Shown piece by piece: positions 1,235-50,852 of a stretch of DNA of 64,000 bases. The position numbers were made by a program, and so were the translations under genes. How positions within the stretch are numbered: the stretch's first letter is position 1; each line of letters opens with the position of its first letter. The stretch is from IMG/VR virus record IMGVR_UViG_3300005253_000031, positions 1 through 64,000 of that record; one strand, given 5' to 3'. Under the pieces are notes generated by a model, which was given only the letters and a program-made list of their open reading frames with translations, did no database searches and was not told where the DNA came from. The stretch is from a virus.

Positions 1235-2440
1235 CTATACTCCCTTGTAATTAAGGATGGAGGTCAACTTTACGACGGGCTCGACCAGGTCCGCACTGTC
1301 TGCCATCACTTGCTCTATGTCCTTGTACGCCTCGGGATGCTCGTCTAGCAACTGTTTGGGCTTGTAGTCGTTCCAGGCTCGATCCCCCATCCATTCCCGC
1401 AGTGAGTCTATGTTGAACGCTCTCTTAGCTGCTCCTCGACTGTGTGTTCGACCTGCCCCGTGTGGACTAGAGTTGTAACTATCTGGATTGCCCAGCCCTC
1501 TAACTATGTACGTCGATGTGGCCATGCTCCCTGGGATTATACCCAACTCTCCCGAGTTCGCGCGTATAGCTCCCTTCCGGGTTATGTACAGCGTCTCATC
1601 AAAATGGCTCTCAATGCTGATAAAGTTGTGATGGCAGTTGATAGTCTCCTCGATACCTATGGGAACAGTAAACCTACCCAGCGCCACCATTGCGGAAGTC
1701 ATCATTATGGCCCTATTGGTGTAGGCGTACTCCTGTCCCCAGAATACCACCTTCATGTATTCCTGAAAGCTCTCTGTGCCGCTCACGAGATAGGACAGAT
1801 CCTTGTCCTCCAGCCCAATTCCCTTTTTCTGCATCTCAGCCTTAGCGATGTCAATGTATACAGTCGCCAACTTATTACCAATTCCCCGGGAGCCCGAGTG
1901 GATAACTATCCATACCCAACCATCTTCGTCCAAGCTAATTTCCAGGAAATGGTTGCCCGAGCCCAGCGTACCCAGTTGCAAACTAGCCCGTTCGTATGCC
2001 GATGCGTAGTCTCGGGAATCCGGAAACACAGAGAAAACGTTCTTTAAGGTTTTACTGTCGTTCATCCACGCTGCTGCTCTCACGTGGGGCTCTTCTCGTC
2101 GGCGTCCTACTCCGGACGGGACAGCCTCAGCTATAGCATTGTGCACAAATGACAAGTCCGGTGGTAAGTCCTCCCGCCTCAGGTCCGTACGGGTAGCTAT
2201 TACCCCACAGCCTATATCTACACCAACCGCAGCGGGAATGATGGCGTCCTTGGTTGCTATAACGGAGCCAACAGTTGCGCCCTTGCCGAGGTGAGCGTCG
2301 GGCATCAACGCCACGTCTCCCCAGACTACGGGGCAACGCGCCAGCATCTCAGCCTGTCGGGCCGTATTGTCATCGAGTATGCTTGCCCAGTTTTTCACTC
2401 CGGTTAACTCGGTGGTGTATGTCATGCTATGCTCCTCCAA
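1235..2440 (-). CDS. rtcB: RtcB RNA 3'-phosphate/5'-OH ligase
   Basis: Motifs MPDAH, VGVDIGCG, GTLGSGNHFLE, HSGSRG, CHHN, RKGA, PGSM, HGAGR, DEHPEAYK. Confidence 0.97.
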   Translation of the reverse strand: MEEHSMTYTTELTGVKNWASILDDNTARQAEMLARCPVVWGDVALMPDAHLGKGATVGSVIATKDAIIPAAVGVDIGCGVIATRTDLRREDLPPDLSFVHNAIAEAVPSGVGRRREEPHVRAAAWMNDSKTLKNVFSVFPDSRDYASAYERASLQLGTLGSGNHFLEISLDEDGWVWIVIHSGSRGIGNKLATVYIDIAKAEMQKKGIGLEDKDLSYLVSGTESFQEYMKVVFWGQEYAYTNRAIMMTSAMVALGRFTVPIGIEETINCHHNFISIESHFDETLYITRKGAIRANSGELGIIPGSMATSTYIVRGLGNPDSYNSSPHGAGRTHSRGAAKRAFNIDSLREWMGDRAWNDYKPKQLLDEHPEAYKDIEQVMADSADLVEPVVKLTSILNYKGV

Positions 2441-3390: not shown

Positions 3391-3495
3391 ATATTATCAC
3401 ACATCTCGGGATTTGTACATCTTTAAAGGTGCCAGGTAAACTATATGTTCAGTAACCTTAGGTTTACTATTCTCTTCGAACGTCTTTGACAGCTT
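3391..3495. repeat. 105-bp direct repeat copy 1, containing a minus-strand sigma70-like promoter (TGTACA-N17-TAATAT, extended TG)
   Basis: Identical to 18297-18401 except for 2 substitutions. Confidence 0.95.
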
Positions 3496-3617
3496 GCTCA
3501 GCTCCCATCCCACGAACAGTAGGAAGACCGCTATATGCTCTCGTCGTAGTAGCCTTCTTGCCAGCTTTCAATAACATGCATCCATACATGTTGGGCTCTT
3601 CCTCGTCCATAAGTCCT

Positions 3618-3756
3618 TGGTGGAGGCGGTGGGAGTTGAACCCACGTTAGTTAGCAAGTACAAAATGGACTTGAACCACTTGTGCAACTGGTATGGTGGC
3701 CAGACACGCCCGCTTTTGGCTACCCGACTGTACGCTAACTCTTCCCCGACGCCCCC
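3618..3756 (-). ncRNA. 139-nt tRNA-like RNA with Ala identity (G3:U70, A73, CCA) and a nested second T-arm module
   Basis: GGGGGCG/CGCCTCC-A-CCA acceptor; GTGGG-TTCAACT-CCCAC T-arm; AGTTAGC-GTACA/TGTAC-TT-GCTAACT helix; inner AGTGG-TTCAAGT-CCATT T-arm; own GGTATAATGTA promoter. Confidence 0.8.
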
Positions 3757-3763
3757 ACGTAAC

Positions 3764-3776
3764 TACATTATACCCC
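3764..3776 (-). promoter_or_regulatory. GGTATAATGTA promoter upstream of the 139-nt RNA
   Basis: GGGGTATAATGTAG; one of six exact 11-mer copies. Confidence 0.7.
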
Positions 3777-3787
3777 GGGGACTCGAG

Positions 3788-4099
3788 TTAACAACCCTCC
3801 TTCTGAAACCTCTTCCAGGCCCACTTCACATGCTTGGTGTAGACCGATTTGTCGTAATATCCATCGTACTCCCATATATCGTCACGGTATATACGTTTCA
3901 TCATCCTGTTACTGCCGTTCTTCAACGTAATAATACATAGCTTGGCGTCGAAATTCACAGTAAATACGGCGGTCCACATAGGTGGAAGCCTGTCCTTGAT
4001 ATACTCGTACTCCTTACGCACGTCCCTGATTGTGTCGGGCTCATATAAGCCTACCTGGAGCCGCTTATCCTTCTGGATCTTGGTCTCTTTGGTCATCAC
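3788..4099 (-). CDS. Hypothetical protein
   Basis: ORF coupled (GTGA overlap) to the nucleotidyltransferase. Confidence 0.6.
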   Translation of the reverse strand: MMTKETKIQKDKRLQVGLYEPDTIRDVRKEYEYIKDRLPPMWTAVFTVNFDAKLCIITLKNGSNRMMKRIYRDDIWEYDGYYDKSVYTKHVKWAWKRFQKEGC

Positions 4100-4785
4100 C
4101 AGTTCTCCTTTCGTACTTTCAATAGGAACTCGTTGACCTTCTCTACGTCGGGCTCCTGTAGTCGCTCAAACGCCTCTGCCCTCTCGTAGGCCTCGTCCAA
4201 CTCTTCTCGTAGCGCCTCCGCCAGATCAACCACTGCTCCTCGAGTGTATTTACCGTCCCGTACGTTTTGCAGGTCCTCGAGCCATTCGTCGGGCACCACT
4301 ATAGACATTGTACCTGTTTCAATCAACTCGATGCCCTGTAGCAGGGTTCGTATGTACGCCACCGCATACTTCCAAGCGCGGCCATCCTTGTCATCTAGGA
4401 ACTTCTTGCGCTGGTTTAAGCTGTAGCCCACGAAGGCATTGCGAACCCCCTCCGTGCTCCACACGCTATCAAACAGGTCTCTAAGTTCATCGCCGATCTC
4501 GTTACTACCCTTCAACGGAGCTACAAACATCTCCAGAATGTTGGCATTAGATTTGGTCGCTAAATGCAAAAAATGGCCCAGCTCGTAGGAGGTATTGTCT
4601 TCGTTCTTACCCTCTACCCACGCTGAGGCCTTGTATTTACCGGTTCCTAAGGATAGCAGTTCACTTGTCGGTGTTACATACACTGCCCTATAGTCGTAAT
4701 CACTGTCTTCACGAGATAGTCCATTGGCTCGGCTACCCACCAGGACCTTAAGGATTTCGATACGCTCGCTCATAACACGCTCCAT
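4096..4785 (-). CDS. Pol-beta superfamily nucleotidyltransferase (RlaP/T4 NrdC.11-like)
   Basis: GSRANGLSREDSDYDYRAVYV (GS..DxD motif), YELGHF..LATKSNANILE, C-terminal EPD..KVNEFLLKVR. Confidence 0.85.
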   Translation of the reverse strand: MERVMSERIEILKVLVGSRANGLSREDSDYDYRAVYVTPTSELLSLGTGKYKASAWVEGKNEDNTSYELGHFLHLATKSNANILEMFVAPLKGSNEIGDELRDLFDSVWSTEGVRNAFVGYSLNQRKKFLDDKDGRAWKYAVAYIRTLLQGIELIETGTMSIVVPDEWLEDLQNVRDGKYTRGAVVDLAEALREELDEAYERAEAFERLQEPDVEKVNEFLLKVRKENW

Positions 4786-6110
4786 TCATACGTTACGTGA
4801 ATCGGTAGCGCTGGCACCAAACAGACCCACACGTTCACATTCTGCCAACTGCCGGTCGCCTTATCGCCGCGCTTCCAAAACGCCCCCACCCAAAGGTCCT
4901 GCGGTTTGAACTCAAGTCCTATGCTCAACATCTTCTTCGGGTACGGCCACCTGCTGCCAATCGGTATGTGTATCATTCACCGCTCCCCGTGACGTTCCTG
5001 GGCCCAGGCAAACCGTGTCGCATGACCGGCGTATGGAAGCTTATGCCGAAACCCCAGTCTTCGGCCACCTTTATACAGCCATCGAACGAGGGACTTCCGC
5101 CGCCGACGAAGTGCTCCCCCGACACCCGTGCGCCATTGTCGAACACCACGTCGCTACTGTACAGCTCCCACGAGTAATCGAACTCGCTGTTGCCGCGCCT
5201 GATCTTGAGCAAGTGCTCGTCAGTTTTAAACTCGCACTCGGTATTTGGCGTCTTCATCTCCATTGCTGCTCCTTATTCGCCTAACAGCGTCAGTATCTCG
5301 TCCAGCTCTCCCAACGTAACCATCTCTGCCGGAGACAGCGTAAACCTAATCATTGCAAGCTCCCGCACGTTCTCCTCGTCTATATCGCCGTGCTCATCGG
5401 CCAACTCATCTTTGACAAAGTCGTCCTTGTCCAGTATGAGATCCAATCTGAACCGAGCACCCCAAAAACCGTCATCTGATCCACCCCTGAACAGCGCGTC
5501 CTCCAAGCTCTCGCCCTCGTGAACCCTACCTACCTTGAACCCCGCGTCAACCTTCTTTGCTAGTTCTCTAATCATCTGTTTCTCCTTCGATAAACGTCTC
5601 GAACGTAACCGGCAATTCTATATGCACTGGTAGGTCATACTTATGTTCGTCGTTTTTATGGCCTTCGTCCAGCAAGCACCAAAATATCCCGCCGTCATAC
5701 TTCAGCCTGTACCTGCATTGATCCTTGTCCTGTATAGTAGCGAGTATCTGCTCGTTCACACCCGCAACCACCGCCTCGTCCTCCAGCCGCTTGATCTCAT
5801 TGACCAAGTCCTCTAACGTCTGATCCTCGTCGACGCCCTTTGCCTCATACACCTCATTGAATAACCTCGACATGCTGTGGCCCTCGCGCTCCTGCGTCAG
5901 CTCTACCATCAGGCGCTTGACTCGCTTCGTATCCAGCTGACGCCAATACTCCAACTGTTTTACTCGGTCCTCGGCCTTCGCCACCCTACGGCTGGTTCTG
6001 CGCCACAGGCCAACAGATGCTCGAGAACACTTCCATTCCTCTCCGTCGCCCAAGAAGCTAGGCATCTCGTGGCTTTTCGCTCTCTCTCCCTCCGATACAT
6101 GGCCTTCCAA
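4770..6110 (-). CDS. Four tandem hypothetical proteins (4770-4976, 4973-5263, 5273-5575, 5568-6110)
   Basis: Abutting or overlapping ORFs with SD sequences. Confidence 0.55.
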
Positions 6111-18452: not shown

Positions 18453-18922
18453 CAAACGTCCTCCAATCTCTGCTTACGAATTAAGTCAAAAATACTTCGT
18501 TCCTCTATTCGCCCGTCGAAGGTTTCCTGAACGTAAATCATAACCCCCGGGGCAACTCCATAGTCTTCTGCATAACGTTTGCGAACATCTAAATCCACCA
18601 CACGACTATCGTCCTCAATGGTTCCTTTAATGGCGTCCAACGTCGCCCTCGTTAACTTGTCTATATCCGGCGGAACCGAGGGATACGGTCTATCCTTGAC
18701 GGATTTGGGACGCTTTAAGAAAAACCATAACTCAACACTTACTGGCCCATCTAACGCCCGTGCGTCCCCCAGATGCTGTCTGATGATAGCTTCCCAATCC
18801 TTGCTTTGCTGAGAATGGGTAACTATCGCACGGGCGGATTTGCCTTTGCCCACCACAAAACCCAACATAGAACCCTTACTCTTGGGGTCACCCTCTACCT
18901 CGACGTACAATGCTCTAGTCAT
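18452..18922 (-). CDS. rusA: RusA-like Holliday junction resolvase
   Basis: PKSKGS, F.LKRPKS, PPDIDKLTRATLDAI..IEDDSRVVDL. Confidence 0.9.
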   Translation of the reverse strand: MTRALYVEVEGDPKSKGSMLGFVVGKGKSARAIVTHSQQSKDWEAIIRQHLGDARALDGPVSVELWFFLKRPKSVKDRPYPSVPPDIDKLTRATLDAIKGTIEDDSRVVDLDVRKRYAEDYGVAPGVMIYVQETFDGRIEERSIFDLIRKQRLEDV

Positions 18923-19952
18923 GCCCTTCTTTCCGCCACAACTGGATTTCATACAGCCCATAGCCACAAACACATTCCCAATCTGCATCTGCGTCTAGTA
19001 CGTCTTTGCACTCCTCACAGGGACCGTTATCCACAAACGCGGCTTCTGCCAATTGGTCTTTATACCACTCGGGAAACCGGTTTGTGATCCCTCGAGCGAT
19101 GGTCTTCCAAAAGTGTTTGAACAGAACCTCTTTGATCCGATCCCCCTCTTCAGCTAACACATCTGTCTGAATCTCTCTAAGCAACGCGCCAATGTCTTTC
19201 GGAGAATGGTCCAGTTCGTCCCGCTCATTGAGGTGCTGCACGGCCTTGGCCCAACGTGCCTCAGTACGTAGTTCCTCGGTCAGGTTGAACACTATGTCCT
19301 TGGTATTGGGATTGCGATTCTTCCAATCCTTTTGGTGCGTCTCTTTGAACGCCTCCGATACCCACTTGCCCAACGCAATCGTTTTGTCGGGGGTAAACAG
19401 GTCGTAGTTCTTAATGACCATTCCCTCGATCTTCACGTTGCCCAGCACCGAATCCCTGTCGAAGAACTCTCTAAGTTCCTCTATACTGTTAACCATCCCC
19501 CGGAACAGTTCGGGCACAGCCTCTATGCCTAACGACTCTGCCTCTAGCTCAAAGGCTAAACGGTTCCGTTCATAATACTGGCCGGGCCGTTCGATGTCGA
19601 ACAACATCAAGCCATTAAAAGGGGTTCTCTCATATGCCAGCGAGTTATGCTTGGGCTTATTCAGCCACTCACAGCGATACGTTGCACCCAACTCAAGGTC
19701 CGGCACAAGGAGCTTGACGTATTCCACTGCTGCCGCAAACATTTTAGATGGAGCGTCTATATCAATTTGCTGGCCTTTTGAATGAACACTTAGTTGAACG
19801 TCATCCAGTTTCCCCTCTCCACCCTCGTCCAACAGCCCGAAGCTGAACTGTGAGCCGTCCACCTTCTCCTGAATAACCACCTCGGATCCAAACAGTCCCT
19901 CCAGGGCTCTATGTCCCACATTGTAGATCTTAGGATAAGATGCTACTTTCAT
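18915..19952 (-). CDS. ATP-dependent RNA ligase (Rnl2-like)
   Basis: YPKI, QEKVDGSQF (KxDG), FDI, VPEL, EGMVIK, KW motifs. Confidence 0.85.
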   Translation of the reverse strand: MKVASYPKIYNVGHRALEGLFGSEVVIQEKVDGSQFSFGLLDEGGEGKLDDVQLSVHSKGQQIDIDAPSKMFAAAVEYVKLLVPDLELGATYRCEWLNKPKHNSLAYERTPFNGLMLFDIERPGQYYERNRLAFELEAESLGIEAVPELFRGMVNSIEELREFFDRDSVLGNVKIEGMVIKNYDLFTPDKTIALGKWVSEAFKETHQKDWKNRNPNTKDIVFNLTEELRTEARWAKAVQHLNERDELDHSPKDIGALLREIQTDVLAEEGDRIKEVLFKHFWKTIARGITNRFPEWYKDQLAEAAFVDNGPCEECKDVLDADADWECVCGYGLYEIQLWRKEGHD

Positions 19953-21911: not shown

Positions 21912-22136
21912 GACAAGCTGCTCTCGTTTTCGATACTCGATATATGTTGGGCGACGCGCAAACCCTACACTCCACTACAGATCCTCGCTGGACAGTCGTG
22001 GATGTGAAGATAAAACTGCTTCCACGCCTCTGCATCAGTTAGCAGCCCCTCAGTATAGCGTTTTGCTATTCTCTGTACGTACTCACAATTCATGTATTCC
22101 CCTTTCTCTTTGTGAAAGCTCCTCAACTTACATAAA

Positions 22137-22206
22137 TAGAGATCGTGGGATTTGAACCACACATTTCCGATTTAACATCGGTGTCCTTCCGTTAGACGAC
22201 ATCTCT
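22137..22206 (-). pseudogene. Degenerate tRNA-like element (5-nt anticodon loop, no CCA)
   Basis: AGAGATG TC GTCT AACGGAA GGAC A CCGAT GTTAA ATCGG AAAT GTGTGG TTCAAAT CCCAC GATCTCT. Confidence 0.65.
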
Positions 22207-22331
22207 ATCTTTATATTGGGGACCTAGGTGAGTACTCTGAACAGTTTCAACCTAAGCCCTCGTAAGGAGGCCATGTATTCAATATACACTATTTTCAACA
22301 AAGTAAACATACCGTCTAGGTTATGTAATCG

Positions 22332-26758: not shown

Positions 26759-29566
26759 TCAGATGCTAGAATCCGGGGGCTCCAAATCCCCCTCTCCGCC
26801 GTACATCTGCGCCTGTTCAGCTTCTTGCTCAGCTCTCGGTTTAACCTCTCCAGTCAGCTCAAACTCATCTCCATCGGGATCGTATTTAGCACCAAACCCC
26901 GCACTTACCGCCGTCGACATCCATCCTACCTTGGCTTGTTTAAGTTCCCATTCAGCCTGGTCGCTGCGCTCTTCTGCGGCAATGAGAGTTAACTTCCAGT
27001 CTGTGATACCGAACGCCCTCAAAAGCTGCGGAAACAACTCCGTGTTGTATACGTCCTGGCTAGACATAGCCCCACGGGACATCCGTATAACCTGCTGACT
27101 TTCGTTGTTAAGCCCACCTACACCGGAGTCAAAGCCCATGAACAGGCCGGGAACCCCATACACTCCAGATACGGAGCGCTCTAGGTACTCCTGTACTGGT
27201 AGGAACTGCAATTCATCTAGGCTGTAGGCAAATCGCACAAACTCCGTCTTGCCCTGACCCGTGTTACTGCTCACTGCCAACCATGGAATGTGGTGCGGGT
27301 TGTTCAGCGTCTCAGCCAGGATTTGCTCCTTGCGAATCTCCACATCTTCGGGGTTATCAGTAACCGTAGTGATAACACCCTGAGGCATCTGTCGCTCAAA
27401 GAAGTAGTCATACAAATAACGATCCATGCCTATCAAAGACAACGCCTTCTCGTACACAGCTAAGACAGGAGAATAACCATACAATTCCGAGGGACTGAAC
27501 TTACTATTCCCTGCAAAAACAGGATAACCCATACGTCTTACTAATAGTACACCGTTCGGAACCTCACAGCAATATACCTTAGATTCTGCCATATTTGGAC
27601 TAAAGTCATCTCTATTATTAGAGTCTTCATGGCCCACGTTAATCGATAATTCAGTATGTAGATCAAAGTAGACACGTTGAGTCGTTGAGTGAATTGTTTC
27701 GTGTTTATACTTACTTAAACGGGCCGAGTAACCCAGTTTAAGAGCAATTTCCTGAACATCATCAAGTAAACGATTCGATGACGAGACAAAATACCCCCGA
27801 ACTCCGTTCTCGATATACTCTCTATTTCGTCCATGTATTTCTTTACCTTCAACGTCGCGTATCCAACATCCGTCAGCATTTATCAACGCATCAAACAATA
27901 TACGCAACTGTCGTTGAGATAAATTCTTGTATTCAAATGGAACAAATCGAGCTCGCGAATGTGAACTAACGCTTTTATCTTCCTTTTCAATTCCAAACGT
28001 CTCCAAAATATATGTTTTCAAGCGCTTATCGCGAATGTAAAACTTGGGGCCTGTTAGATTAACTGTAAAGGGCATTCGATCTAATAGGGCCTTAATTCGA
28101 TGCCAAGTAGGTGTTCCCAACTTCTGGGAAATTATAATGGCATTCCCCGCTATGTGACTATTGGCCGAGCCTTCAGCAAGCCACCACCCCAAGAACTCTA
28201 GCCAATCATCCATTGCAATTTCTATGTGGGGTAAATCATCATGTTTAGTACCTTGTGACTGGGGGATTCCAGGTAATATAAACTTTTCAATTTCCTCACC
28301 ATTCCAATCTGCCCCCAGTTTGAACGTTAACTTTTTGCGGTAAGCCTCCTTGGCTTGAATCAATTCATAGTCATCTGAGTCGTCTACCTTAACATAGAGG
28401 TTATGATTTGGTGTAACGTTCAAATCAAGCATATTACCTGCAACCTTAACACCTCCCTGTGCTGAGTACATGAACTCCGGCCCGTCGTACTCGAAATGAC
28501 TTGTAGGCTTCTGCCACTCCATGACATCGGTCTTCTGATTCAAAGTCATGACCACATCGGTGTCGGAAACGTCTTTGAAATACTGCCATCCGCGCTGTTT
28601 AGTCAATACCTGCGTTTGATCATCATAGCAGGCATGTATCACCTCACCCTGTACAATATAGAGGCTTTCCTTGTCCGTGCTAATGCCTCCACTCTTAACC
28701 CCATATGCGCCGCTCATAGGCACGTACCTGAACATGACGGGGAACGTGGGATAACCATCAATCGGACAGCGTCCCTTCCAGTCATGCTCCCAGCCCTCAT
28801 CAGCAGGTACTTCCAGCAGATTGTCTCGATGAGCCAGGCATACGTGATGCGCCATGCCGGGCCTGTTCTGAGAGTCGGCATCAAACTCCACGAACACTGG
28901 ATCTAGTCTGTATAGTTGCTTTACCTGACGATATATGGTGGGTTTACCATCCTCGGATCCCAACGTGTACTCAGACGACAGAAACAGAAAGGCATCATCA
29001 ACTATATTGAGATCATCCTCAAGAGTCTGCAATAGGCGAATAAAGGACTGTCCAAAGATATTTACCTTGGACATCAAGCGCTCGAACCTTACTCTCTGTG
29101 CGGGATCTGGAGTCTGCAATACTTCACTGCATCTCGGACACACTTCATTTTCATCCCGGTCATCCTTGAGGTCCTTCTGCGTGTAGTCAACCTCACACGA
29201 GGCACAGCGGTAAACGAAAGCCGGTAACCACTCCAATCCCCGCCTAAACACCTCTTGCTTTAGAGAAAGGATGGCAGTCTTGAGAGTGCTAAGGTTATGC
29301 GCCATTCCATACAGGTCGATGAGATTGAAGCGCTGAAATAACTGCTGACGTACACCCTTAAAGCCGATGTCCGGAACTCCAACCATAGGGGCCGATGTCT
29401 TCAACGCCTTCTGAATTGTTTGCAATGCGTTAAAGTTATCGGTATCCCCGGCCGTCAAGCGTTGCTCTATTACCTTCAGAAAACTCGCCGCTTTCGGATC
29501 CAGCGCTGCATAACTGCCCGCAGGTGCTCCTCTATTCTTACTAAACCACTTATTCCAAAAAGCCAT
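26759..29566 (-). CDS. Portal protein containing an intein
   Basis: Near TerL; EDDLNIVDDAFL, EVIH..SKFSPSELYGYSP, YFFERQMPQGVI, YGVP. Confidence 0.85.
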   Translation of the reverse strand: MAFWNKWFSKNRGAPAGSYAALDPKAASFLKVIEQRLTAGDTDNFNALQTIQKALKTSAPMVGVPDIGFKGVRQQLFQRFNLIDLYGMAHNLSTLKTAILSLKQEVFRRGLEWLPAFVYRCASCEVDYTQKDLKDDRDENEVCPRCSEVLQTPDPAQRVRFERLMSKVNIFGQSFIRLLQTLEDDLNIVDDAFLFLSSEYTLGSEDGKPTIYRQVKQLYRLDPVFVEFDADSQNRPGMAHHVCLAHRDNLLEVPADEGWEHDWKGRCPIDGYPTFPVMFRYVPMSGAYGVKSGGISTDKESLYIVQGEVIHACYDDQTQVLTKQRGWQYFKDVSDTDVVMTLNQKTDVMEWQKPTSHFEYDGPEFMYSAQGGVKVAGNMLDLNVTPNHNLYVKVDDSDDYELIQAKEAYRKKLTFKLGADWNGEEIEKFILPGIPQSQGTKHDDLPHIEIAMDDWLEFLGWWLAEGSANSHIAGNAIIISQKLGTPTWHRIKALLDRMPFTVNLTGPKFYIRDKRLKTYILETFGIEKEDKSVSSHSRARFVPFEYKNLSQRQLRILFDALINADGCWIRDVEGKEIHGRNREYIENGVRGYFVSSSNRLLDDVQEIALKLGYSARLSKYKHETIHSTTQRVYFDLHTELSINVGHEDSNNRDDFSPNMAESKVYCCEVPNGVLLVRRMGYPVFAGNSKFSPSELYGYSPVLAVYEKALSLIGMDRYLYDYFFERQMPQGVITTVTDNPEDVEIRKEQILAETLNNPHHIPWLAVSSNTGQGKTEFVRFAYSLDELQFLPVQEYLERSVSGVYGVPGLFMGFDSGVGGLNNESQQVIRMSRGAMSSQDVYNTELFPQLLRAFGITDWKLTLIAAEERSDQAEWELKQAKVGWMSTAVSAGFGAKYDPDGDEFELTGEVKPRAEQEAEQAQMYGGEGDLEPPDSSI
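27506..28630 (-). mobile_element. Intein (375 aa) with LAGLIDADG homing endonuclease
   Basis: Begins CYDDQTQVLT; block B VTPNHNLYV; LGWWLAEGS and LFDALINADG; ends VYCCEVPNGVLLVRR..PVFAGN|S; AT-richer than flanks. Confidence 0.92.
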
Positions 29567-48979: not shown

Positions 48980-50275
48980 TTACAACGACTCCTTCTCAAA
49001 TTCCTGTGGTGCCATAAAGTCCATCTGTGCAATCAACCCGCTGTCTACGTCCCACTCGAGATACTGCTTTGAGTCCCAGGTTTTTCCTGCTCTGTTGTAT
49101 GGCACCTTGAAAATCCGTCTGAACTTACTCTCCGGATCCTCAGCAATAGTTATCAGCCGATTAGCTGCTTCTACTGCGGACTTGCCGTATCCCACCTGTA
49201 TGATGTCATGGATCGGCTCATTTTTGTTGGTCAACCCCTGTGTGTTTGGCTGGCCAGCCCAGATCACGACGTTGTTGTAATACTGCGCTGCATTCTTCAG
49301 GCCATCCGCACACTCCTTAATAGTTTCCCAGCCGGTTTGGCCCTCACGACCCTGTAGCAAGTGTATGCCGTCTATCAACATGAGGTCAGGACGGTGCTCC
49401 TCCATGAGCCCTAACAGGTCCTCGAACGTAAACCCAGATGCTGATTGGCTGTCAACGCAGATGAAATCCGCCCGCTCCTGAAGTTTGTACAGCCAGCTTC
49501 GATACGCCTCCATATCCACGTCTTTCCCGGAACTCAACGTATCATGAGAAAACTGATTTCGGAACTGTCGAGCTAGCACTACATCAAATCTCAAGCCGCA
49601 CTCTGTCATCGACATCTCAGGAGATACCAACAGCACTTTATAGCCTGCTCGATACGCAACACATCCAAAGTACATCAGTAACCAGGACTTACCCGAACCT
49701 TTTGGGCCCACGACCATGATTCCTTCGCCCTCATGCCAGCCCTGATAGTAGCCATCAAAACAAGCCAATCCCGTGGGAATCCCCCCAACTTCTCCCTTCT
49801 CTATGCCCGCGATCTTCTCCTCAAGCGCCACCATCCTAGACAGCGCATCTCGATCAAGGAACGCCACGTGCTTCGCAGTCTGAGGTTTCAATGCACGCAG
49901 ATCCAACTCTAACCCGGCCAGAACTTCGTAGGGGTCGTCCCGGAGATTTACTCCCCCTGCTCCAAACCTATCCCGTACAGCTTGACTCATCATTCTAGCA
50001 GTGTATTGAGACAGCAACTCGTCTATGTAATAGGAGATGTCCCCCGCCTCCAAGAACTCAAACTCCAGATCTGTGTTCGAAAAACGCTTGATGATATCGC
50101 CCTGGTTGGGGAAATTGCCTTCGTAAACCTGCACGTAGTTGACAATGAAATCAAGCACCTCCCCATACAACAGAAAATGCTCGGAGCGAACACCCTCCTG
50201 GGACAGCTTCCGCAAATCCTCTACGTTCTTGATGGAACTCAATAAACCTTGTTCAACGTCTTCTGGTGTAAGCAC
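48980..50275 (-). CDS. dnaB: DnaB-like replicative helicase
   Basis: GIPTG, GPKGSGKS, SPEMS, IDGIHLL, Q. Confidence 0.9.
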   Translation of the reverse strand: MLTPEDVEQGLLSSIKNVEDLRKLSQEGVRSEHFLLYGEVLDFIVNYVQVYEGNFPNQGDIIKRFSNTDLEFEFLEAGDISYYIDELLSQYTARMMSQAVRDRFGAGGVNLRDDPYEVLAGLELDLRALKPQTAKHVAFLDRDALSRMVALEEKIAGIEKGEVGGIPTGLACFDGYYQGWHEGEGIMVVGPKGSGKSWLLMYFGCVAYRAGYKVLLVSPEMSMTECGLRFDVVLARQFRNQFSHDTLSSGKDVDMEAYRSWLYKLQERADFICVDSQSASGFTFEDLLGLMEEHRPDLMLIDGIHLLQGREGQTGWETIKECADGLKNAAQYYNNVVIWAGQPNTQGLTNKNEPIHDIIQVGYGKSAVEAANRLITIAEDPESKFRRIFKVPYNRAGKTWDSKQYLEWDVDSGLIAQMDFMAPQEFEKESL

Positions 50276-50852
50276 TCAATCCCCCTTGTGGTCGTACGGC
50301 ATATCGTACCCAGCAACTATCACAATGTGTTTCATCACCTTCGGGATGGTTCTCGCCCCCTTCAATCTCAGGCCACTCCTCCAATGCTCCTCTCTCCTTC
50401 AAACGGGCATCAACAGAATCACACGCTGAGTTTAGCTTCTCGATCGGATCCTCATCTGCATTATACCCGTTTCGAACATCCTCAAGGAGTCCCATCCAGT
50501 AGGCAAAGTAGAAACGCTCATACGCAGTTTCTGAGAAACGCTCGTAGTACATGTACTTCCAAGGCTGGTTATAGCCTCCTAGGTCGATCACAGCGCGATT
50601 AAACACGTTTGTCGTCAACAATCTACCCGTAACGCCTACCACATGGATGAACTCTCCAGCAATCAAACGGTCTGTTGCACATACCAATAGGTAACGATTG
50701 TTATCGAAGTTCTTCAGAAGGGCTGCATAACCTCTAACCAAAGGGGCTTTCATGGTAAAGCTGTCTCCGAGTCCCTTGGCCTCAGCTCGACTAACGAAGT
50801 AGTCGGCCAGAGCTGTTGGAGTATAGCTTCCCGCCAACGTTATGATTTTCAT
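50253..50852 (-). CDS. Hypothetical protein (replication module)
   Basis: ORF between rnhA and dnaB. Confidence 0.6.
   Translation of the reverse strand: MKIITLAGSYTPTALADYFVSRAEAKGLGDSFTMKAPLVRGYAALLKNFDNNRYLLVCATDRLIAGEFIHVVGVTGRLLTTNVFNRAVIDLGGYNQPWKYMYYERFSETAYERFYFAYWMGLLEDVRNGYNADEDPIEKLNSACDSVDARLKERGALEEWPEIEGGENHPEGDETHCDSCWVRYAVRPQGGLSAYTRRR

Follow-up and report, generated by a model that had tools for sequence, protein, structure and literature searches.

The window analysed here is the first 64 kb (64,000 nucleotides) of a 90,882-bp IMG/VR record of an uncultured phage, which has direct terminal repeats and carries nearly all of its genes on the minus strand. On this strand, the window contains the gene for a 139-nt RNA, the predicted mature form of which begins at G1 and ends in an encoded CCA (Table 1). 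The sequence-only reading of this DNA had placed the RNA next to RtcB and an RlaP-like nucleotidyltransferase, and both neighbours were confirmed, RlaP by PF10127. Before RtcB, the downstream region also encodes a 73-aa ORF and tRNA-Trp, tRNA-Arg and tRNA-Asn, and everything downstream of the RNA is on the same strand. The upstream neighbour, an orphan protein of about 102-103 aa, belongs to no family and has a low-confidence Atlas model; it is also encoded on two other contigs. The phage genome has no SmpB gene. Therefore, any SmpB partner of the RNA must be that of the host.

Table 1 Coordinates of the 139-nt RNA gene and its parts, of the promoter motif and neighbouring genes, and of related RNAs in other records
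Feature	Position	Strand	Basis or remark
Promoter: TTGTTA (3794-3789), 16-nt spacer, TATAAT (3772-3767)	3767-3794	-	part of the GGTATAATGTA motif at 3774-3764
GGTATAAT copies in the window	58813, 56879, 50467, 47923, 26758, 23648, 10155, 9890, 8837, 3774, 3118, 1543	-	motif count
GGTATAAT copies past the window	82007, 90238 of the genome	gene strand	motif count
Whole RNA gene, 139 nt	3618-3756	-	predicted mature form, G1 at 3756 to CCA at 3620-3618
Acceptor stem 5' strand GGGGGCG, RNA positions 1-7, with G3 of G3:U70	3750-3756	-	standard pairs
D-loop analogue UCGGGGAAG, 9 nt, positions 8-16, without D-stem and UUCGAC	3741-3749	-	sequence read; compared with PMC1168896
Helix 2 5' strand AGUUAGC + GUACAG, positions 17-29	3728-3740	-	MFE fold, pairing check, pair probabilities
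Inner linker UCGGGUA, then weak 3-bp D-like hairpin GCC/GGC, positions 30-49	3708-3727	-	MFE fold; pair probability 0.44
Inner 8-bp hairpin with UU bulge and 8-nt loop CCACCAUA, positions 50-75	3682-3707	-	MFE fold, pairing check
Inner T-arm AGUGG-UUCAAGU-CCAUU, positions 77-93	3664-3680	-	shuffle test; pair probability 0.69-0.79
Helix 2 3' strand UUGUAC, UU bulge, GCUAACU, positions 94-108	3649-3663	-	MFE fold, pairing check
Connector AAC (3 nt) and outer T-arm GUGGG-UUCAACU-CCCAC, positions 109-128	3629-3648	-	RF00023 alignment; T-arm motif
Acceptor 3' strand CGCCUCC (U70), discriminator A73, encoded CCA	3618-3628	-	RF00023 alignment, standard pairs
RlaP (PF10127)	4096-4785		upstream of the RNA, 340 nt away
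RtcB	1235-2440		downstream of the RNA, 1.2 kb away
Rnl2-like ligase	18915-19952		elsewhere in the window
Two-T-arm family of about 100 nt (n = 7)	L161:3081-3180, L171:7764-7859(-), L180:1564-1661(-), L192:8709-8807(-), L193:9974-10075, L200:597-693(-), L032:1402-1501		
Lone T-arm/acceptor pieces	L163, L164, L166, L168, L170, L172, L175, L178; L217, L241, L269, L229, L305, L306, L312		

Two further features of the phage should be mentioned. A 47-aa ORF (MDEEEPNMYG..., 3467-3610 on the minus strand) starts 8 nt (AGGACUUA) past the CCA of the RNA, and its AAGGA Shine-Dalgarno sequence overlaps the A of this CCA. The ORF could not be annotated, and it may be spurious. The other is a tRNA at 22135-22208 on the minus strand with the anticodon UUA (ochre-suppressor type), which scores weakly (38.7 bits) and in which G replaces U33. 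The phage code is standard, and TAA is the commonest stop codon (48 of 121 long ORFs). A UUA suppressor tRNA would cause read-through, and the phage might for this reason have to dampen the tagging by tmRNA.

The RNA gene begins 10 nt behind a recurrent phage motif, GGTATAATGTA, and transcription is predicted to start about 4 nt ahead of G1. The core of this motif, GGTATAAT, is present in 14 copies on the gene strand, compared with 1.9 expected, and is absent from the other strand. The copies usually extend to GGTATAATGTA, written as GGTATAAT(GTA), and have no conserved -35 element. One of them is located 6 nt ahead of tRNA-Trp, at the front of the downstream tRNA array. From these counts, GGTATAAT(GTA) is a putative phage-wide -10-type promoter motif. 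Thus, the promoter that had been ascribed to the RNA is real as a motif, by its excess over expectation and its strand bias. The nucleotide at position -1 of the RNA is U, which RNase P prefers at this site, and CCA is also encoded by all five canonical tRNA genes of the phage. No intrinsic terminator was found 3' of the RNA.

The minus strand of this interval reads letter for letter as had been written before. The acceptor stem has 7 bp (G1-C72, G2-C71, G3:U70 and G4-C69 onward) and is followed by A73 and CCA. Helix 2 has 7 + 6 bp (13 bp), its 3' strand being interrupted by a UU bulge. Both linkers contain UCGGG, the inner one as UCGGGUA, and no nucleotide separates the inner T-arm from the 3' strand of helix 2. 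The loop of the inner hairpin, CCACCAUA, is not an anticodon loop. All proposed helices, including both 5-bp T-stems, consist of standard pairs, and the unconstrained MFE fold has the same architecture as that proposed. The described outer module, with its 7-bp acceptor stem, G3:U70, A73, CCA and T-arm and without a D-stem, agrees with both results. In the ensemble, the acceptor stem had pair probabilities of 0.95-1.0 and P2a had 0.86-0.97. Those of the inner T-arm were lower (0.69-0.79), as were those of the inner hairpin and the outer T-arm, which together ranged from 0.52 to 0.68. The z-score of the fold against shuffled sequences was -1.18; modest values are usual for tRNAs and tRNA-like RNAs.

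No Rfam family reached its gathering score at 3618-3756. When the search was performed with an E-value threshold, the tmRNA model RF00023 gave 39.7 bits (E = 2.7e-14), which is below its gathering threshold of 47 bits. The alignment spans model positions 1-374, but only the two ends (the acceptor stem, the T-arm and ACCA) are matched; between them, 326 model positions are passed over, opposite 99 nt of the RNA. Thus, the Rfam scan that the sequence-only reading had named as a check gave no confident full-length match, and the proposed likeness of the outer module to the tRNA-like domain (TLD) of tmRNA holds at both ends. The RNA shares with bacterial tmRNA the alanine identity set (G3:U70 acceptor, A73, CCA) with the T-arm, and a helix 2 that leaves the TLD; the RF00023 alignment and the pairing check bear out the idea of an anticodon-less RNA with the full set. 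In contrast, the mRNA-like domain, resume codon, tag frame, stop codon and pseudoknots PK1-PK4 of tmRNA are all absent. The lack of a tag ORF and of pseudoknots had already been noted, and the absence is supported by ARAGORN, which gave neither a tmRNA nor a tag, and by the 99-nt interior, which folds as helices and hairpins. ARAGORN called no tRNA at 3618-3756 either, although six tRNAs were called elsewhere in the window.

The D-loop analogue is also divergent. In tmRNAs, the linker is 10-13 nt long, and near-universal 5' UUCGAC and 3' GAC sequences form sheared G-A pairs by helix 2a, which is the SmpB site (PMC1168896). In the 139-nt RNA, the linker is 9 nt, and the connector is AAC. Because the linker is short and both 5' UUCGAC and 3' GAC are missing, binding of SmpB is doubtful.

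TLD-only tmRNAs of phages are already on record, so the outer module is not in itself a new idea: mycobacteriophage DS6A is listed with a "TLD only" tmRNA (Hudson, Lau and Williams 2014, PMC4131195). Furthermore, as cited there, tmRNA is strongly inhibited by a molecule similar to TLD-only, and titration of SmpB is a possible cause (Mao et al. 2009, via PMC4131195). We located the DS6A gene (tmID 11587 in the tmRNA Website) at 28478-28560 of JN698994. Like the 139-nt RNA, it is encoded by a phage, has a G3:U70 acceptor stem, a T-arm and A73, lacks a tag frame and pseudoknots, and is aligned by RF00023 at the ends alone with a score below the cut-off (43.2 bits). It differs from the 139-nt RNA in that it is 83 nt long with a simple helix-2 hairpin, keeps UCGAC and ends in CUA, whereas in the 139-nt RNA helix 2 extends over 13 bp and bears a branched cap that holds a second T-arm, CCA is encoded, and UCGAC and GAC are both lacking. 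Plain TLD-only genes of 82-83 nt were found in four more viral contigs (L177, L183, L194 and L197). Two of these, L177 and L197, keep both 5' UUCGAC and 3' GAC, and DS6A keeps the 5' GAC. The 139-nt RNA, too, is a phage gene that consists of an acceptor stem, linker, helix 2 and T-arm without a coding part; its size and branched tip depart from the DS6A type (about 70-85 nt, simple helix-2 hairpin), and deletion of positions 24-101 would leave a standard plain mini-tmRNA. Judged by its sequence, the 139-nt RNA is a real RNA gene, and its outer shell falls into the known but little-studied class of phage TLD-only mini-tmRNAs. What is new is the second, nested tRNA-like module on the lengthened helix 2.

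The ends of the RNA also resemble those of particular bacterial tmRNAs. Over the acceptor stem and T-arm (7 + 28 nt), the RNA is identical to tmRNAs from several Terriglobales/Acidobacteriota metagenome-assembled genomes, among the matches listed. The same 28-nt 3' end together with the 5' start GGGGGCGUC (the first nine nucleotides) was present in four full-length tmRNAs (L083, L085, L113 and L151), again among the matches listed. The identity of these listed matches suggests, as a hint only, that the phage RNA may mimic the tmRNA of its host.

We then considered whether the inner module exceeds chance. A strict T-arm motif was defined as a 5-bp stem closed by G53-C61 with the loop UUCRANY. 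Seven copies are present on both strands of the 90,882-bp genome, five in tRNAs and two in the 139-nt RNA, which is thus the sole non-tRNA locus with tRNA-type T-arms. When the insert was shuffled 200,000 times, a T-arm appeared with a frequency of 1.15e-4, and a T-arm followed, as in the 139-nt RNA, by 6 nt that pair with an upstream segment appeared with a frequency of 5e-6. Because such arms are rare in the shuffled sequences and the motif is rare genome-wide, the inner T-arm is a built feature, far beyond chance. Taken as a whole, the inner module is no tRNA: RF00005 did not match it at E ≤ 10, and ARAGORN found just a poor, mismatched cloverleaf in it with thresholds lowered to 70%. The D-arm, the anticodon arm with a 7-nt loop and U33 of tRNA are absent from the 139-nt RNA. 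Therefore, of the earlier description of a second module with the same parts, the second T-arm is genuine, while the tRNA character of the module did not hold.

Three other ideas on the interior were rejected. The inner module is not an internal duplication of the outer one, since their likeness is restricted to the T-loop. No similarity was found that would derive it from a tmRNA body or from the phage tRNAs. An antisense role of the loops was also dismissed, as complementary sites are not enriched in the phage genome.

To search for homologues, a model (R1) was built from the sequence of the 139-nt RNA. Pattern scans of IMG/VR with 7-nt spacing between the T-loop and TCCACCA yielded 44 and 117 loci, and R1 and blastn found no interior homologue among them; most matches of the 117-locus scan were tandem tRNA/tRNA-Ala pairs. 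By blastn of the 139-nt RNA against INPHARED, nothing or the last 30 nt alone was matched. R1 detected nothing in 151 Terriglobales genomes or in five whole records (L002, L003, L005, L007 and L009). The RlaP loci L002-L006 contain no TLD, relatives by TerL (≤46% identity) encode ordinary tRNAs only, and the RtcB of the phage has no close relative in IMG/VR. Because no interior homologue was obtained from the databases and relatives searched, no helix of the 139-nt RNA has covariation support.

The sequence-only reading had called the recursive plan unfamiliar. The plan is not unique, since three unrelated phage RNAs have the same nesting: L174 (3151-3253, plus strand), L037 (141-265, plus strand) and L233 (1956-2103, minus strand), and a family of about 100 nt also has two T-arms. 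Like the 139-nt RNA, the three are found in phage contigs and have a shell of acceptor stem, T-arm and ACCA, with a helix the branched tip of which holds a second T-arm. In contrast to this likeness, their interiors have no sequence similarity to that of the 139-nt RNA, and the inner T-arm is placed elsewhere in the junction. L174 (103 nt) shares the 3' acceptor strand CGCCUCC with the 139-nt RNA; in L174, a three-way junction that includes a T-arm-like hairpin closes the 10-bp helix 2, and a terminator-like GC-rich hairpin follows the RNA. L037 (125 nt) is built from a 7-bp acceptor stem, a linker of 9 nt and a 7-bp helix, on top of which is a cloverleaf called as a tRNA by ARAGORN; it differs from the 139-nt RNA in having A3-U70. 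L233 (148 nt) has a tRNA-Ala-like shell, the long anticodon-side helix of which bears a branched insert with a T-arm, and differs in that the D-arm is kept. Neither RtcB nor SmpB was found in the records of L174, L233, L037, L177 and L197, four of these five records being fragments.

The family of about 100 nt has seven members (Table 1). Its acceptor stem is of the alanine type, with G3:U70 in five of the seven and A3-U70 in the other two, and it has an invariant GUAUGGUAC hairpin and a CGACGG motif. In the alignment of the seven sequences, compensatory changes back the acceptor stem and the inner T-arm. ARAGORN did not call the member L161, and we know of no description of this family. Two more families with an alanine acceptor and two T-arms were observed, one of 117 nt (L184, L186 and L198) and one of 99-100 nt (L176, L182 and L199). 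Both have several small hairpins around one multiloop, and ARAGORN was silent on L184, L198 and L176.

Several other arrangements were encountered. In a 407-kb phage contig (L036, about 5891-6070, minus strand), a shell of GGGGCUG...CGGCUCCACCA with G3:U70 and its own T-arm appears to enclose a complete, ordinary tRNA gene. A similar shell appears to surround a complete tRNA in L033 (3349-3483, minus strand); its putative 5' strand overlaps the 3' end of the preceding tRNA, and the shell may be due to chance. In many phage contigs, a lone piece made of a T-arm, a 3' acceptor strand and ACCA lies within about 10-70 nt behind a tRNA, and no 5' partner is present near it (Table 1). Some of these lone pieces have a tmRNA-type GGAC ahead of the T-arm. 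Duplicated att sites, or the acceptor parts of two-piece tmRNAs, could explain the pieces.

The RNAs of T4 known as rnaC and rnaD (species 1 and 2) were also compared. Like the 139-nt RNA, they are encoded by a phage in a tRNA cluster and have no known function, and rnaC is also 139 nt long. In contrast, rnaC has one T-arm and a different fold. Within rnaC (L207, T4 AF158101, 1907-2001, minus strand), the 3' 95 nt align to R1 as a TLD-like unit with one T-arm and the acceptor CGGAACG/CGUUUCG, including a G3-U70 pair; the score is 22 bits only and the MFE fold differs. On this score and fold, rnaC was rejected as a relative of the 139-nt RNA.

How may the 139-nt RNA act? The explanation that we favour, tentatively and with somewhat less than even confidence, is that it would be a tag-less mini-tmRNA, made of a TLD only, the 13-bp helix 2 of which is capped by a cloverleaf-like T-arm module, and that it may compete with host trans-translation. 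The anatomy of the shell and the literature precedents (DS6A and the inhibition by a TLD-only-like molecule) support this reading. In contrast, the missing SmpB-site consensus lowers our confidence in an alanine-charged decoy that would interfere with host trans-translation. In the proposed mechanism, the transcript would be made from the phage promoter, trimmed by host RNase P (with U at -1) and 3' exonucleases, charged with alanine by host AlaRS and then bound by EF-Tu. Host tmRNA and tRNA-Ala would then have a competitor for the trans-translation machinery (SmpB and the ribosomal A site), so that the tagging and rescue of stalled ribosomes might be blocked or redirected during infection. 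The inner module would most likely be a compact nuclease-resistant cap that replaces the tmRNA body, or a second elbow for an elbow-binding factor. Of all the steps in this proposal, we are least sure of what the inner module does.

The divergence of the D-loop analogue from the tmRNA consensus also fits another explanation, in which the target is a factor other than SmpB. A tRNA mimic with two elbows might soak up a host factor that recognises the acceptor/T-arm or the elbow, for example a tRNA-targeting defence nuclease or acetyltransferase, AlaRS, RNase P, or a CCA-adding or modification enzyme, and the two elbows would double the bait. Both T-arms are canonical, each is preceded by a UCGGG linker that could give G18/G19-type contacts, and the gene is located in a cluster that would counter RNA damage (RtcB, RlaP, tRNAs and a Rnl2-like ligase). 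However, no specific host factor can be named, and the analogous RNAs occur in phage records without RtcB. Anticodon nucleases are not among the candidates, because the 139-nt RNA has no anticodon loop and cannot bait them. We consider a decoy for a non-SmpB factor rather unlikely.

The existence of other RNAs with two T-arms raises the possibility that alanine-charged "double-elbow" phage RNAs form a functional class of their own, in which the inner elbow would be the business end and not ballast. The TLD shell would then bring the second module to the ribosome or to a tRNA-recognising factor of the host or phage, and the inner elbow might serve, for example, as an RNA substitute for the SmpB/anticodon-arm side or as a second bait. 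We regard this class as unlikely.

Since removal of positions 24-101 leaves a plain mini-tmRNA, a nested insertion should also be weighed: a plain mini-tmRNA (about 65-70 nt, helix 2 of 7 bp) may have taken a tRNA-like insert of about 78 nt into its apical loop, the composite being tolerated or only one of its two parts still being at work. The whole tRNAs between TLD-like shell halves in L036 and L033, and the inner module of L037 called as a tRNA, are consistent with such an event. However, the inner module has no second copy in the genome, and direct repeats, a nuclease gene and an integrase are all lacking at the site. Moreover, the continuous 13-bp junction helix is clean and the T-arm abuts its 3' strand, so that the structure looks built rather than accidental. 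An insertion of this kind is quite unlikely in our estimation.

A further explanation is that the RNA, at the 5' end of the transcription unit, is a processing or stability element, which would mainly give an RNase P or 3'-end cleavage signal, or a protective cap, for a downstream message (the 47-aa ORF, the 73-aa ORF, the tRNA array and RtcB). The lack of an intrinsic terminator, the 47-aa ORF close behind the CCA with its overlapping AAGGA, and the common strand of everything downstream would agree with this. However, for punctuation a full alanine identity set with encoded CCA would be superfluous, and so would a second T-arm, and the downstream tRNA array has its own promoter. A processing element is thus very unlikely.

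It should also be mentioned that bacterial Y RNAs such as YrlA contain a tRNA-like module, and their genes accompany those of Ro and RtcB (Chen et al. 2014, PMC4201824). The 139-nt RNA is likewise non-coding, with a tRNA-like elbow and RtcB nearby. Unlike YrlA, its ends form an acceptor stem with CCA instead of a Ro-binding terminal stem, a Ro/TROVE gene (PF05731) is absent from the phage genome, and no Y-RNA family of Rfam was matched. RlaP enzymes extend damaged 3' ends of RNA by one or two nucleotides, and ligation follows (bioRxiv 10.64898/2025.12.29.696909; PMC7824862). DS6A (L038/L040) also encodes an RtcB-like ligase, gp76, at 49300-50502. That the RNA is a dedicated partner, guide or substrate of RtcB/RlaP, in the manner of YrlA with Ro and RtcB, is far-fetched: RlaP acts on RNA 3' ends and both genes are close by, but the phage has no Ro protein, the RtcB of DS6A is 21 kb from its TLD gene, and none of the five other phage records with TLD-type RNAs (four of them fragments) contains RtcB, so that the partnership with the neighbouring RNA-repair enzymes proposed earlier is not backed.

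Tag-less mini-tmRNAs look common in phages and, to our knowledge, have barely been studied; the literature amounts to one line on DS6A and one inhibition experiment. The combination of perfect alanine identity, no SmpB-site consensus and an extra elbow raises the question of whether mini-tmRNAs act through SmpB at all, and the 139-nt RNA, with its shell and inner module, is a natural construct for this question. If the double-elbow class is true, L174, L037, L233 and the two-T-arm families of 100-117 nt would be members of one undescribed class. If several unrelated phages have converged on designs with two T-arms, the tRNA elbow may be a target in the conflict between phage and host, in translation or RNA repair.
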